NCBI GenBank assembly: GCA_963742415.1
Contig: CAVULX010000004.1
Coordinates: forward strand, 1,088,001-1,152,000
Direction of reading: 5' to 3'
DNA: 64,000 nt
From: an uncultured Parachlamydiaceae bacterium
GTDB lineage: Bacteria > Chlamydiota > Chlamydiia > Chlamydiales > Parachlamydiaceae
Position numbers and translations under genes: made by a program. The notes beneath the pieces are model-generated. The model saw only the letters and a list, made by a program, of their open reading frames with translations. It searched no databases and had not been told where the DNA came from. Below, one piece after another: positions 8,238 through 63,209 of this stretch; the first letter of the stretch is position 1, and each line of letters begins with the position of its first letter.

Positions 8238-8298
8238 GTTCTAACTGTCAAAATCAATAACTTAAGAGAAGTTACTTAGGAGACAGAGAGAAGGAAAA

Positions 8299-8450
8299 AA
8301 CAGGATAAGCAAGATCGTAAACGGCAGGATAAGCAGGATAAAAGAAAAAACGATGTTTTCGAACAGTCTTAACTTAATCATATCTGCATTTCCTTAATCT
8401 TTATTCAATATCCTGCTTATCCTGCCGTTTACGATCATGCTTATTCTGTT
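8299..8450. repeat. Palindromic element family B, copy 1
   Basis: ~42-bp IR aacaggataagcaagatcgtaaacggcaggataagcaggata / tatcctgcttatcctgccgtttacgatcatgcttattctgtt around a ~68-bp spacer; homologs at 17006-17570 and 63059-63209. Confidence 0.9.
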
Positions 8451-8478
8451 TCTTCTCTGTGCATAGCTACTTAGGAGG

Positions 8479-16979: not shown

Positions 16980-17596
16980 ACCATATAGGCAGTGAGATCG
17001 CTGAGTTAGGAACAGGATAGGCAGGATCGTAAACGGCAGGATAAACAGGATGTTAATAGGTCGATGCTGAATTAACCAGGATTTCCGCTTAACATCTGCC
17101 TATAGAGGCATTTTAAACCTAAAAAAATTTGCAAGGAAGTGACTCTTTCACTATCAAAAGCTTGCAAATTTTAACCGGAAACCTGTACTCCGTAATTATG
17201 TCGTCCTTACAGGACTCCCTTTTTTTTGCATTTTACCCAGGCCTTCGCTTCGCTACGACCTGGGCTATAACATTTCGGCCTTTCAGGCCGTTTTCAGCGC
17301 CGAAGGCGCGGAATATCATAGCCCAGGTCGTAGCGAAGCGAAGGCCTGGGCTATAACATTTCGGCCTTTCAGGCCGTTTTCAGCGCCGAAGGCGCGGAAT
17401 ATCATAGCCCAGGTCGTAGCGAAGCGAAGGCCTGGGTAAAATGCAAAAAAAAGGGAGTCCTGTAAGGACGACATAAAATTCTTTTTTTGTAGATATAGAT
17501 GTTAAATCAGCATCGACTAATAACATCCTTTTTATCCTGTCGTTTACGATCCTGCCTATCCTATTCCTAACTCAGTGATCTCACTGGCTCTGTGGT
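16980..17596. mobile_element. Nested palindromic composite C[B[E[D+A]]] between convergent genes
   Basis: C arms 16980-17005/17571-17596, B arms 17006-17056/17521-17570, E arms 17057-17104/17490-17518, D 17101-17190, A 17196-17476; non-autonomous and mobility is inferred only. Confidence 0.75.
17196..17476. repeat. Family A copy 2 with an internal 86-bp tandem duplication
   Basis: Perfect 73-bp arms 17196-17268/17404-17476; unit 17259-17344 is repeated at 17345-17430. Confidence 0.97.
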
Positions 17597-28733: not shown

Positions 28734-28824
28734 TTAACGCAGAGCCGGGGAGTCGGGGAGACGCAGAGATAAGTCATTTTCTCGATTATCTCTGCGTCTC
28801 CCCGACTCCCCGGCTCTGCGTTAA
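28734..28824. repeat. Family G perfect palindrome (39-bp arms, 13-nt loop)
   Basis: ttaacgcagagccggggagtcggggagacgcagagataa and its exact reverse complement at 28786-28824. Confidence 0.95.
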
Positions 28825-42310: not shown

Positions 42311-42746
42311 ACCACAGAGTGAGATCACTGAGAAAATACGAGAAATTGAGTAAAAAGGGTTTGTAGCCCGATGTTGATTAACATCTCTACCTATTAAAAT
42401 AAAATTGTATGCCGTCCTTACAGGACTCTGTTTTATTTGCATTTTACCCAGGCCTCGCTTCGCTCAACCTGGGCTATAACATTTCGGCCTTTCAGGCCGT
42501 TTTCAGCGCCGAAGGCGCGGAATATCAAAGCCCAGGTTGAGCGAAGCGAGGCCTGGGTAAAATGCAAATAAAACAGAGTCCTGTAAGGACGGCATACAAT
42601 TTTATTTTTATAGATAGAAATGTTAAATCAGCGCCGACCCTATCTTTACCAAAATTATTCCATACCCTCCATTCCCCTTATTCCTCCTCAATTCCAAATT
42701 TCTCACTGATCTCAAACTTCCTCAGTAATCTCAGTATCTCTGTGGT
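42311..42746. mobile_element. Nested palindromic composite C[E[A]] between convergent genes
   Basis: C arms 42311-42332/42721-42746, E arms 42368-42394/42610-42638, inner A copy 3; mobility is inferred only. Confidence 0.72.
42396..42608. repeat. Family A copy 3
   Basis: Perfect 80-bp arms 42396-42475/42529-42608. Confidence 0.97.
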
Positions 42747-49564: not shown

Positions 49565-50902
49565 ATGCTTTTACAAACACAGCAAAAAATTAAACTCACA
49601 ATCCGCAACTTAGGACATCATGGGGAAGGAATTGGCTCCTATGAAGGGTATACCATCTTTGTCCCTGGAGCGTTGCCTGGTGAAACTATCGAAGCTCAAT
49701 TGCTCGAAAAGCATAAAAGTTATGGGCGAGCGCGTCTTCTGTCTATTATCCAACCTTCTGCGGCCCGTATTGATCCCCCTTGCCCCTATTTCGGAAAATG
49801 CGGTGGATGCCAATTAATGCATCTTGCTTATTCAGAACAACTCCTCATCAAGCAGCAGCGGGTCAAAGATGCTCTCGAACGTATCGGAAAATTGCAGAAC
49901 ATTCAAGTTGCTCCATGCATCCCATCCCCTTCTACGTTTGCCTATAGAAATAAAATTCAGCTGCCCCTCAAAGAAGATCAAAATGGAGTGAAAATGGGGC
50001 TTTATGCCCCCTCATCGCATGACCTTATTGAAGTCGATCATTGCCTCATCCATGGCACTTTGGGTGAGGAAATCTATCAAAAAATCCAAGGTATCATTAA
50101 ACAGTCGAATGGAGCTGCAAGAGAATTACGTCATCTCCTGATCCGAAGTGCAATGAATACCCAAGAGGTCTTGGTTATTTTGGTGACAGCGAAAGAGAGC
50201 TGTCTCCCATTATCCTCGCTAGCAAAAAAAATTATCTCCTGCCATCCCTCCATCAAAGGGGTTGTCCAAAATATCAATCAAAGTGGAGGCAACACGATCT
50301 TGGGAAAAACTTATAAAGTCTTGGAAGGGGTAGGTTACATCACAGAATGTTTAGGGGGCCTTTACTTTAAAATCTCTCCCGCTTCTTTCTTTCAAGTCAA
50401 CCCTGAGCAAGCTGAAGCGCTTTACGCCAACGCGATCGAGTTGGCAGAGCTTAATGGATCTGAAACAGTATTGGATGCCTATTGTGGAGTTGGAACTCTT
50501 TCCCTCTTTTTTTCTAAACATGTAAAAAAGGTTCTGGGAGTAGAGTGTGTACCCGAAGCTATTGCAGACGCGAAAGAAAATGGCAAAATCAACCGAATTG
50601 ATAATGTGAACTTTGTTTGCAGCAATACCGAAGCTTTCATTAGCACCTTGTCTGATGTTGACGTGATCCTTTTGAACCCCCCGAGAAAGGGATGCGACCC
50701 CTCTGTTTTGAACGGGATCCAAAAGATACTTCCAAAAAAAGTGATTTATATTTCCTGTGATCCGGCCACTCTTGCAAGAGACCTTTCCCAATTGCAAACC
50801 TACGGCTATAAAATCCAAACGGTCCAACCATTTGACATGTTCCCTCAAACCGCCCATGTCGAATGTATCGTCAAAATGGGTTTGGCAATTTCCCAAGGTT
50901 AA
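49565..50902 (+). CDS. rlmD: 23S rRNA (uracil-5)-methyltransferase RlmD/RumA family
   Basis: TRAM domain, CPYFGKCGGC, SFFQVN, LDAYCGVG, YISCDPATLARD and DMFPQTAHVE. Confidence 0.93.
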   Translation: MLLQTQQKIKLTIRNLGHHGEGIGSYEGYTIFVPGALPGETIEAQLLEKHKSYGRARLLSIIQPSAARIDPPCPYFGKCGGCQLMHLAYSEQLLIKQQRVKDALERIGKLQNIQVAPCIPSPSTFAYRNKIQLPLKEDQNGVKMGLYAPSSHDLIEVDHCLIHGTLGEEIYQKIQGIIKQSNGAARELRHLLIRSAMNTQEVLVILVTAKESCLPLSSLAKKIISCHPSIKGVVQNINQSGGNTILGKTYKVLEGVGYITECLGGLYFKISPASFFQVNPEQAEALYANAIELAELNGSETVLDAYCGVGTLSLFFSKHVKKVLGVECVPEAIADAKENGKINRIDNVNFVCSNTEAFISTLSDVDVILLNPPRKGCDPSVLNGIQKILPKKVIYISCDPATLARDLSQLQTYGYKIQTVQPFDMFPQTAHVECIVKMGLAISQG

Positions 50903-50906
50903 AATT

Positions 50907-51158
50907 ATGCTGCATATGATTAAAAAAGTTGAATACATAGAAGGATACAAACTAAGACTCTTTTTCAATGATTTAAAAATTAAAATTATTGATTTTGAAG
51001 AAAGGCTTAGAGAAGCAAAAAATATGTTTCTTCCTCTAAAAAATATTGATTATTTCAAAAAAGTCAAAGCCGATGGCACAACACTGGTTTGGCCAAACGG
51101 CTTGGATCTTTGCCCTGATACTTTGTACGCAATCGGCAAAGAAGAAATCATAAAATAA
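50907..51158 (+). CDS. DUF2442-family protein
   Basis: KVEYIEGYKLRLFFND...FKKVKADGTTLVWPNGLDLCPDTLY; true start is ATG 50907, not 50757. Confidence 0.85.
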   Translation: MLHMIKKVEYIEGYKLRLFFNDLKIKIIDFEERLREAKNMFLPLKNIDYFKKVKADGTTLVWPNGLDLCPDTLYAIGKEEIIK

Positions 51159-51370
51159 AATTTATGTCGTCCTTACAGGACTCCATTTTTTTGCATTTTG
51201 CAACCAGGCCTTCGCTTCGCTCGACCTGGGCTATGATATTACGCGCTTTCAGCGCTAAAAAAAAGGCCTGAAAGGCCGAAAATGTTACAGCCCAGGTCGA
51301 GCGAAGCGAAGGCCTGGTTGCAAAATGCAAAAAAATGGAGTCCTGTAAGGACGACATAAATTTTATTTTA
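51151..51370. repeat. Family A copy 4 (loop in the opposite orientation to copies 1-3)
   Basis: Perfect 82-bp arms 51151-51232/51289-51370. Confidence 0.97.
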
Positions 51371-63058: not shown

Positions 63059-63209
63059 AACAGGTAAGCATGATCGTAAACGGCAGGATAAGCAGGATAT
63101 TGAATAAAAAGGTTCAGGATGTGGGAATATAATTAAGTTTAAACGATTTAAAAAAAAATTTTTGTTTTATCCTGCCCATCCTGCCGTTTACAATCATTCT
63201 TATCCTGTT
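63059..63209. repeat. Family B copy 3, degenerate; a family C right arm follows at 63322-63343
   Basis: caggtaagcatgatcgtaaacggcaggataagcaggata / tatcctgcccatcctgccgtttacaatcattcttatcctgtt; tgatctcactgcctcggtggtt downstream. Confidence 0.85.

Follow-up and report, generated by a model that had tools for sequence, protein, structure and literature searches.

How do the two arms of a long palindromic repeat stay mirror images of each other while copies of the same repeat differ from locus to locus? The question is raised by a 64,000-nucleotide stretch of the genome of an uncultured Parachlamydiaceae bacterium (the window, by which we mean the whole stretch analysed), which holds three copies of a palindromic repeat that we call Family A, named here by the first position of their left arms as the 17196, 42396 and 51151 copies. 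The window is C4:1088001-1152000 of the source genome G000, a 2.69-Mb assembly in four contigs (C1 to C4) that is 84% complete. Other genome codes, such as G008, G013, G014, G018 and G022, denote relatives from the same family or order, and codes that begin with L denote individual loci.

Here, we describe the anatomy of Family A, its distribution in G000 and related genomes, its connection to a transposase gene and to the Rfam motif Acido-Lenti-1, and the explanations that can be offered for its symmetry. The answer that we favour, with a confidence somewhat above even, is that the arms are kept mirrored by DNA-level templating of one arm on the other.

Mirrored arms and private variants

A sequence-only reading of the window had claimed that the arms are perfect within each copy and that each copy nevertheless carries private variants, indels among them, on both arms. 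Both statements hold. Recomputed exactly, the arms are complementary at 73 of 73, 80 of 80 and 82 of 82 positions in the 17196, 42396 and 51151 copies, and all the variant strings that had been quoted occur in the sequence and recur in mirrored form on the partner arm. The next outer and the next inner pair are mismatched in all three copies. Between copies, the left arms differ pairwise by 2-7 substitutions and 4-10 gap columns. As single-stranded DNA, positions 42378-42626 fold into one long hairpin of -123.5 kcal/mol, against a mean of -26.1 for shuffled sequences (z = -29; none of 200 shuffles was as good).

From the outside inwards, an arm consists of an AT-rich stretch, a small hairpin h1 (GTCCT-TAC-AGGAC), a variable spacer, about 20 nt long, and a second hairpin h2 (CCCAGG..loop..CCTGGG). 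The arms enclose an asymmetric centre, which in the 42396 copy contains the hairpins CGGCC-TTTCA-GGCCG and GCGCC-GAA-GGCGC, identified in the sequence and in the fold.

A BLAST search with the three window copies located 35 Family A loci in G000, all on C3 and C4. Two arms are present at 31 of them; the remaining four are a site with a solo h1, a right-arm fragment and two halves around a transposase gene. Over the aligned part of the arm (44-67 columns), the two arms are perfect in 13 of these 31 copies and show at most one difference in 25, while one-arm differences are kept in 18. The median difference between loci is 6, whether left arms are compared with left, right with right, or left with right. 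The prediction that arms would group by locus rather than by side is borne out: an arm's own partner is its unique nearest neighbour for 38 of 56 arms and tied for 7 more, and in a maximum-likelihood tree left and right arms are sister tips at 19 of 28 loci, the side label changing 26 times. Forcing all left arms into one clade costs 49.8 log-likelihood units and is rejected (approximately unbiased test, p-AU 0.0003).

The nature of the variants is more telling than their number. Counted against the consensus, the 21 loci of the main subfamily have 38 variant sites at which both arms carry the mirrored change, 12 of these being private to one locus with single-base indels among them, and 21 sites changed on one arm only; five of the latter are differences in the length of T runs and nine come from just two loci. 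If one-arm changes were independent, about 0.05 mirrored private sites would be expected, as estimated from the site counts. The 42396 copy has two mirrored single-base deletions and two mirrored substitutions, located in the h2 loop and the spacer, and at C3:435330 a mirrored T-to-C change breaks pairing inside the h1 hairpin itself. Diverged subfamilies differ in their entire ~20-nt spacer, and even there the mirroring is perfect (C4:276846, 356741 and 343116; C3:495106). Some variants are mirrored at certain loci and one-armed at another (columns 9, 11, 55 and 59). Along the arm, one-arm differences account for 13 of 28 variant sites in the outer third, 5 of 20 in the middle and 3 of 11 in the inner third, a weak trend driven by T runs; with about 9 transitions to 6 transversions, they give no signal of RNA-level G-U tolerance.

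Because private variants are mirrored, indels included, independent compensation is implausible, as had been proposed from the sequence. Selection without templating would need it: only copies that pair perfectly would be mobilised or function as RNA or DNA hairpins, independent second mutations would restore pairing, and we would see the survivors. Such an account has a precedent in the sections of Bertels and Rainey (PMC3116915) on Pseudomonas REPINs (doublets of repetitive extragenic palindromes, or REPs, that form hairpins), where mirrored changes are called ‘compensatory changes’ and the capacity to form a hairpin is taken to be selected. We nevertheless consider it unlikely for Family A, since the mirrored single-base indels and the ratio of private mirrored to one-arm sites demand too many independent hits, a single mismatch in an 80-bp stem of -123 kcal/mol should be hardly visible, and the change at C3:435330 damages the h1 hairpin rather than preserving it.

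An assembly or polishing artefact, in which the assembler made the arms identical, deserves hardly any weight. The five T-run differences between arms are typical of long-read error and errors at the level of single bases are conceivable, but a unique asymmetric centre separates the arms, and the variants are specific to their loci, while a homogenising artefact would not create private mirrored indels. The retention of one-arm differences in 18 of 31 copies makes such an artefact unlikely, as does the finding of the same mirrored-arm pattern in 6 of 6 copies examined in G014, a genome from another genus that was assembled separately (370 contigs).

Outer modules, centres and genomic context

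Most copies of the main subfamily carry one outer module, X or Y, on each side, and 33 of 37 X/Y matches found in G000 by BLAST adjoin Family A. The two sides are combined as X..Y' or Y..X' in 13 copies with a centre, in which X and Y are mutually non-complementary, and as X..X' in 3, where the outer modules match too, with few mismatches; Y..Y' never occurs. The 17196 copy, with Y on the left and X on the right, is therefore Y..X', and its ends are not complementary. With these 13 copies all read from X to Y', the two orientations of the centre occur 6 and 7 times. At C4:120340-120374 an X variant, a single h1 and a Y' variant follow one another, as in Family A without the part from the left h1 to the right spacer; this solo-h1 site is similar to the asymmetric product of REPIN excision known from the literature. 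One empty Y-X' junction lacking the Family A core was found at C4:166260-166360.

X and Y could also be the terminal inverted repeats of a classical MITE (a miniature transposable element with inverted repeats) of a DDE transposon, with the palindromic core as a passenger. The tight association of X/Y with Family A would suit this explanation, and X ends often abut T..A, as judged by eye. We consider it very improbable: in 13 copies X and Y do not complement each other, diverged subfamilies occur without X/Y, the Y1 transposase gene described below is flanked by Family A halves and not by X/Y, and no clear target duplication was seen by eye, although a parent element with these ends was not systematically searched for.

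All 31 two-armed copies lie between open reading frames (ORFs) of at least 120 aa, bar small overlaps, and one such overlap is in the window, where the outer end of the left arm of the 51151 copy covers the stop codon of the ORF at 50757-51158. Five copies in divergent spacers belong mostly to diverged subfamilies. The h1 hairpin with its T run was flagged as terminator-like on both strands, pointing inward. Of the 29 copies whose context can be classified, 21 lie between convergent ORFs; like the placement between ORFs, this count comes from crude ORF calling. The convergent position counts in favour of selection on pairing, as the hairpin could be a terminator or a stabiliser of mRNA.

The distribution over contigs is uneven: C1 (71 kb) and C2 (284 kb) have zero Family A copies against about 4-5 expected from the density on C3 and C4. 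C2 carries other palindromic families, and C1 and C2 may be separate replicons.

The Y1 transposase gene

G000 has only one gene with a match to PF01797 (Y1_Tnp), located outside the window at C4:1304374-1304851 (81.6 bits) and frameshifted by a perfect 25-nt tandem duplication (C4:1304421-1304470). Two Family A halves, inverted relative to each other and with h1 on the gene side, lie around it and form arms of 93 nt with 7 mismatches and 498 nt between them. HVH and KYISNQ motifs are present in the translation, and the HUH and Tyr positions are invariant in the alignment of orthologues. Intact orthologues of 151 aa (45-65% identity) occur in G008, G013, G014 and others; the closest among the fetched loci, 60-65% identical, come from G008, G013, G014 and G022, all of which have Family A relatives. 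By eye, the orthologues too are flanked by h1-spacer-h2 units, whose spacers vary by genus and largely match across the gene (16 of 16 positions in L045, 19 of 20 in L032). This complementarity over about 500 nt in several genera can be cited for selection on pairing; the broken state of the only transposase gene in G000 speaks against it.

Family A is linked to a Y1 transposase. Its sequence features mark it as a probable non-autonomous REPIN/TIR-repeat family (TIR, terminal inverted repeat) of a Y1 (HUH, IS200-like) single-stranded DNA transposase of the RAYT/TIRYT kind, and this transposase presumably mobilises the elements. Compared with IS200, the gene is present as a single copy in G000 and its inverted-repeat flanks are unlike IS200 ends. 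For the 151-aa Y1 clade, the genome collection contains at least 585 relatives, spread over Planctomycetota, Acidobacteriota, Bacteroidota, Verrucomicrobiota, Chlamydiota and others, and flanking inverted repeats rise above shuffled controls in 50 of the 78 clade loci with enough flank.

A search of 40 other genomes from the same family and order found Family A or its relatives in 10. Co-occurrence with PF01797 was considered as a further line of evidence: a Y1 gene is present in 9 of the 10 genomes with Family A and in 18 of the 30 without, a comparison that is uninformative because several Y1 types are present. When the Y1 locus was compared by tblastx with 11 loci, all matches fell inside the gene and its repeats (L013, 1313-2018), so that the locus is unusable as an orthologous site. 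To the right of the G000 gene are the remains of another repeat type, whose h2 is of the CCTGGGGCAACGCCCCAGG kind. L113 and L121, two Y1 genes of the 151-aa clade, are separated by about 2 kb on the same 3.1-Mb contig from an uncultured Chlamydiae metagenome-assembled genome.

Proposed arm-to-arm templating

Mirrored private variants, indels included, make templating between the arms the best reading of Family A. An element is made up of two inverted composite units, each of about 80-95 nt, that join head to head; the order within a unit is h1 hairpin, free spacer, h2 hairpin and half centre. In single-stranded DNA the palindrome would fold as a hairpin, and either a polymerase would copy one arm off the other (template switching, equivalent to quasipalindrome correction) or the mismatched stem would be repaired. 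A change on one arm, an indel as much as a substitution, would then be erased or written onto the partner. The hairpin modules are conserved across genera because, presumably, the protein reads them; the spacer drifts freely.

Templating fits the near-perfect arms, the mirrored indels, the matching outer modules of the X..X' copies and the occurrence of both centre orientations. Homogenisation of arms together with inversion of the spacer is described as a signature of template switching between inverted repeats in the relevant sections of PMC8604942 and PMC5941160. A second, unrelated palindromic family in G000 fits as well, with six copies whose arms of 75-143 nt have 0-2 mismatches and whose differing spacers are mirrored. 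Counting all inverted repeats of G000 whose arms reach 25 nt or more, there are 232, of which 68 are perfect.

When the copying would take place is a separate matter. Templating in situ, during host replication, is a tentative proposal that we hold to be quite possible; templating while a new copy is made, by fold-back at the central hairpins, strikes us as rather doubtful. The broken Y1 gene favours maintenance in situ, if weakly, given that the assembly is 84% complete. The sequence-only reading had presented the templating of one arm from the other as a clue to how the element replicates. Its first half stands as the best reading; the role in replication does not follow, as correction in situ fits equally well.

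A neighbouring explanation confines the symmetry to birth by fold-back: a half element would be mobile, a doublet would form when synthesis, folding back at the central hairpins, duplicates the first arm, and the two arms, identical at birth, would afterwards decay with no correction in place. Solo halves and tail-to-tail pairs with unrelated spacers in relatives agree with it, as do the one-arm differences in 18 of 31 copies (two of them strongly decayed), the excision-like solo-h1 site at C4:120340 and the variants found on both arms of one locus and on a single arm of another, much like parent and daughter. It requires an active transposase or another source of copies, and the only Y1 gene is frameshifted, though the incomplete assembly may miss another one; it also leaves unexplained the X..X' copies with matching outer modules, and alone it does not explain both centre orientations in X..Y' copies. 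We regard birth by fold-back without later correction as improbable, if worth keeping in view.

Several observations weigh against templating between the arms, or against the transposase connection that accompanies it. No conversion event has been observed. None of the 21 public sequencing runs screened for the stretch contained more than 0.05 of the sampled words, and no RNA run was found to contain it; a search of metagenomes for close strains, using a neighbouring 467-aa protein, gave a best match of 74% identity, with Family A in 0 of the 80 loci kept. Two old G000 copies have 16 and 17 differences between their arms. In G018, the spacers of tail-to-tail doublets are unmatched in 5 of 6 readable pairs (by eye), which implies that spacer pairing is not needed for spread there and that homogenisation is not universal; the same units, which propagate with unmatched spacers, also argue against selection on pairing. 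Centre orientation is unrelated to the sign of local GC skew (7/9 versus 6/4, Fisher p = 0.69), and X/Y orientation is even too, so a strand signature for single-strand transposition is lacking. Insertion of the core, either way, into an X|Y' site could also have produced the two orientations of the centre. Lastly, the G000 Y1 protein scores 21.3 bits against the cut-off of 80 of the NCBIfam RayT model NF047646, and 52.8 against the cut-off of 55 of the IS200 model NF033573, the latter for the frame after the break without its first ~13 residues. With scores below the NCBI cut-offs, we file it as a RAYT/TIRYT-like relative outside the curated RayT family.

In G018 (loci L049-L069) there are more than 60 such ‘inside-out’ doublets, in which the h1 sides face each other across a linker of about 20 nt and a few recurring spacer types appear in varying combinations. 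Many matches in G018 and G014 lie less than 250 nt from a contig end, which indicates that these repeats break short-read assemblies.

Acido-Lenti-1 as a module of Family A

The inner module of Family A, made of h2, a linker and a hairpin, is the motif Acido-Lenti-1 (RF01687). The window has three RF01687 matches, scoring 43.6, 43.6 and 39.6 bits (gathering score 37), two of them at 17296-17350 and 17382-17436; the match in the 42396 copy takes in the h2 and GCGCC hairpins and the linker GGCTA..TAT.CCG. The whole of G000 has 49 places above the gathering score.

The association extends to the transposase clade beyond Chlamydiota. Acido-Lenti-1 exceeds the gathering score at 6 of the 12 top-ranked, unselected Y1-clade loci from other phyla, and at 16 of 20 Y1 loci that were picked for their inverted-repeat score (13 on both sides). 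For 20 Y1 loci from relatives of G000 the figure is 3, with the modules recognisable by eye in more, and for 8 classical IS200 loci it is 0. Matches that flank a gene are on the minus strand upstream and on the plus strand downstream.

In Rfam and in the main text of Weinberg et al. 2010 (PMC2864571), Acido-Lenti-1 is filed as a probable small RNA of unknown function, whereas here it is a module of a DNA palindrome and occurs in inverted pairs around a transposase gene. Our literature search found no link between Acido-Lenti-1 and a transposase; the supplement of Weinberg et al. may say more about neighbouring genes. The result supports re-reading this abundant orphan motif as a DNA signal of the Y1 transposase clade, which is found in Planctomycetota, Acidobacteriota, Verrucomicrobiota, Chlamydiota and others. 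For annotation, it means that these loci should not be treated as small-RNA genes by default.

A more far-reaching proposal is that copying of the arms is an obligatory step in the propagation of the widespread 151-aa Y1 clade, with Acido-Lenti-1 as its DNA signal. A single-stranded half element, or an asymmetric intermediate, would fold back at the central hairpins and be completed to a palindrome, which would yield perfect arms, free mirrored spacers and flip/flop centres, as in hairpin-primed replicons. We put this forward as a conjecture that is probably too strong. Should it be true, it would answer a question left open in the discussion of REPINs by Bertels and Rainey (PMC3116915), namely how a symmetric REPIN is re-established.

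Further RF01687 matches above the gathering score, in a 45-nt form whose h2 loop is short, lie outside Family A. They were found on C3 (85857, 419392, 853945, 854127 and 590322), on C1 (53952) and on C4 (1035485, 1289424, 1065927, 196518, 959345, 1287730, 766168 and 1222524), and point to at least one further family built on the same module.

Relation to known repeat systems

The reference for REPINs and their RAYT transposases is Pseudomonas fluorescens SBW25 (Bertels and Rainey 2011, PMC3116915), for which mirrored changes in the hairpins had already been reported in the sections cited above. As with REPINs, the two inverted units of Family A form one long hairpin together with a spacer, copies number in the tens and are extragenic, tandem clusters occur, and one Y1 gene is flanked by the same repeats in inverted orientation (frameshifted in G000, and present in other genera too). 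Family A differs in that its units are composites of about 80-95 nt with two hairpins and a free spacer, whereas REPs measure about 20-40 nt, and in that its mirrored changes include indels and whole spacers. Its protein misses the NCBI RayT model, and its host is chlamydia-like rather than a gammaproteobacterium. The GTAG at the 5' foot of the hairpin, a criterion given in the passages on REPs of PMC3733652, is absent, h1 being preceded by TATGCC or TATGTC.

Also comparable are the TIRtrons with their TIRYTs, presented by Di Nocera et al. 2013 (PMC3733652) as RAYT-like Y1 genes with long terminal inverted repeats in place of REPs. Such TIRs can make up repeat families of moderate abundance, arranged as dimers or clusters, and examples come from Acidobacteria (Koribacter versatilis), a phylum in which Acido-Lenti-1 was defined. 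The G000 locus shares with them a Y1 gene with HUH and Tyr motifs and long flanking inverted repeats, here of 93 nt. The TIRtron account, in the part of the paper available to us, covers neither arm symmetry nor repeat families in Chlamydiae nor the identity with Acido-Lenti-1. Nor did our literature search find REPIN-type repeats in chlamydiae; the same part of Di Nocera et al. names the Planctomycetes-Verrucomicrobia-Chlamydiae (PVC) group only for GTAG repeats.

The proposed mechanism has its own literature. Quasipalindrome correction goes back to Ripley 1982 and work of the Lovett laboratory, as cited in the introductory parts of PMC5941160. Sections of PMC5941160, PMC8604942 and PMC8794818 describe how template switching makes imperfect inverted repeats perfect in one step, multi-base changes included, and can invert the spacer, and propose it as a source of ‘compensatory’ changes in stems. 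These cases mostly have short arms (5-30 nt) and come from E. coli, phage T4, yeast and humans, whereas Family A arms are about 80 nt long. Within this literature the process is reported neither from Chlamydiae nor from a mobile repeat family with 80-nt arms, and for Family A we infer the event from its outcome.

The bacterial interspersed mosaic elements (BIMEs) of E. coli consist of REPs in alternating orientation with linker motifs. Family A is like them an alternating palindromic mosaic, with head-to-head and tail-to-tail joins, extra outer modules (X and Y) and tandem amplification, although its sequences are different and its units much longer. BIMEs are mentioned in the relevant passage of PMC2817692.

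Beyond the known REPIN and TIRtron kind, Family A offers useful extras: its arms are very long and have free spacers, its mirrored changes include indels, its centres are of the flip/flop type, its host is chlamydial and its inner module is identical with an orphan Rfam motif. With Family A, a REPIN-type repeat system is on record for environmental chlamydiae. Its long arms and free spacers offer a natural read-out of information transfer from arm to arm, each copy recording mirrored substitutions, indels and inversions of the centre, and whether the ‘compensatory’ changes in hairpins come from template switching or from selection thereby becomes testable.

Feature coordinates and further observations

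The features of the three window copies and the loci of the second palindromic family are listed in Table 1.

Table 1. Coordinates of Family A features in the window and of the second palindromic family in G000 (window positions unless a contig is given)
Feature	Position	Strand	Description
Left arm, 17196 copy	17196..17268		73/73 complementary to 17404-17476
Tandem duplication, 17196 copy	17259..17436	+	86-nt inner unit (centre + h2'), 2.1 copies, 100% identical
Right arm, 17196 copy	17404..17476		73/73 complementary to left arm
Y-type outer module (variant), left of 17196 copy	17156..17195	+	BLAST 100% over 16 nt
X-type outer module, right of 17196 copy	17484..17518	-	C4:1105484-1105518, 100% over 35 nt
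Left arm, 42396 copy	42396..42475		80/80 complementary to 42529-42608; AT-rich outer part, h1 42414-42426, spacer, h2
Asymmetric centre, 42396 copy	42476..42528	+	Orientation C+ by BLAST; two small hairpins
Right arm, 42396 copy	42529..42608		Mirror image of 42396-42475; h1' 42578-42590
Full inverted repeat, 42396 copy	42378..42626		116-nt arms, 91% complementary; X-type outer module on both sides
Acido-Lenti-1 match (RF01687)	42505..42557	-	39.6 bits vs gathering score 37
Left arm, 51151 copy	51151..51232		82/82 complementary to 51289-51370; subfamily with different spacer
Centre, 51151 copy	51233..51288	-	C-, opposite to the other two window copies
Right arm, 51151 copy	51289..51370		82/82 complementary to left arm
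Second palindromic family	C4:1333219-1333505, 1268659-1268951, 485645-486130, 643363-644115, 1021465-1021668; C3:755359-755647		Six copies

A second measurement of the 42396 inverted repeat gave arms of 98 nt with 3 mismatches, all in the outer part. Amplification of the inner unit, seen as a tandem duplication in the 17196 copy, also occurs elsewhere in G000, with 6 units at C3:243904 and 5 at C4:172877. In the 42396 copy, the X module and outer arm contain a symmetric promoter-like arrangement, TTAACA-16-TAAAAT, at 42378-42405 (+) and 42626-42599 (-), with 10 of 12 positions agreeing; the two matches, which are matches to a consensus only, point inward from both sides.

Copies of the second palindromic family have a hairpin GCCGCT.CCGCGGC, a variable spacer and CCCCACGTT..CGCGGGG, and show few mismatches even across loops of 264-467 nt. 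Besides Family A, G000 contains Hc1 histone-like and TLC nucleotide transporter families, which mark chlamydiae, with one Hc1 histone-like gene and four TLC transporters.

Palindromic families are also nested in one another. The 17196 copy lies within an inverted repeat of the AACAGGATAGGCAGGATCGTAAACGGCAGG family (16990-17055 and 17521-17586; 66-nt arms, 4 mismatches, 465 nt apart), which is present in the window at 8294-8455 and 63065-63202 as well. A perfect palindrome with 39-nt arms at window positions 28734-28824 belongs to the TTAACGCAG..GGGGAG family, and at C4:343068-343342 the same family encloses a Family A copy with arms of 111 nt and 0 mismatches, the arms being different from those at 28734-28824.

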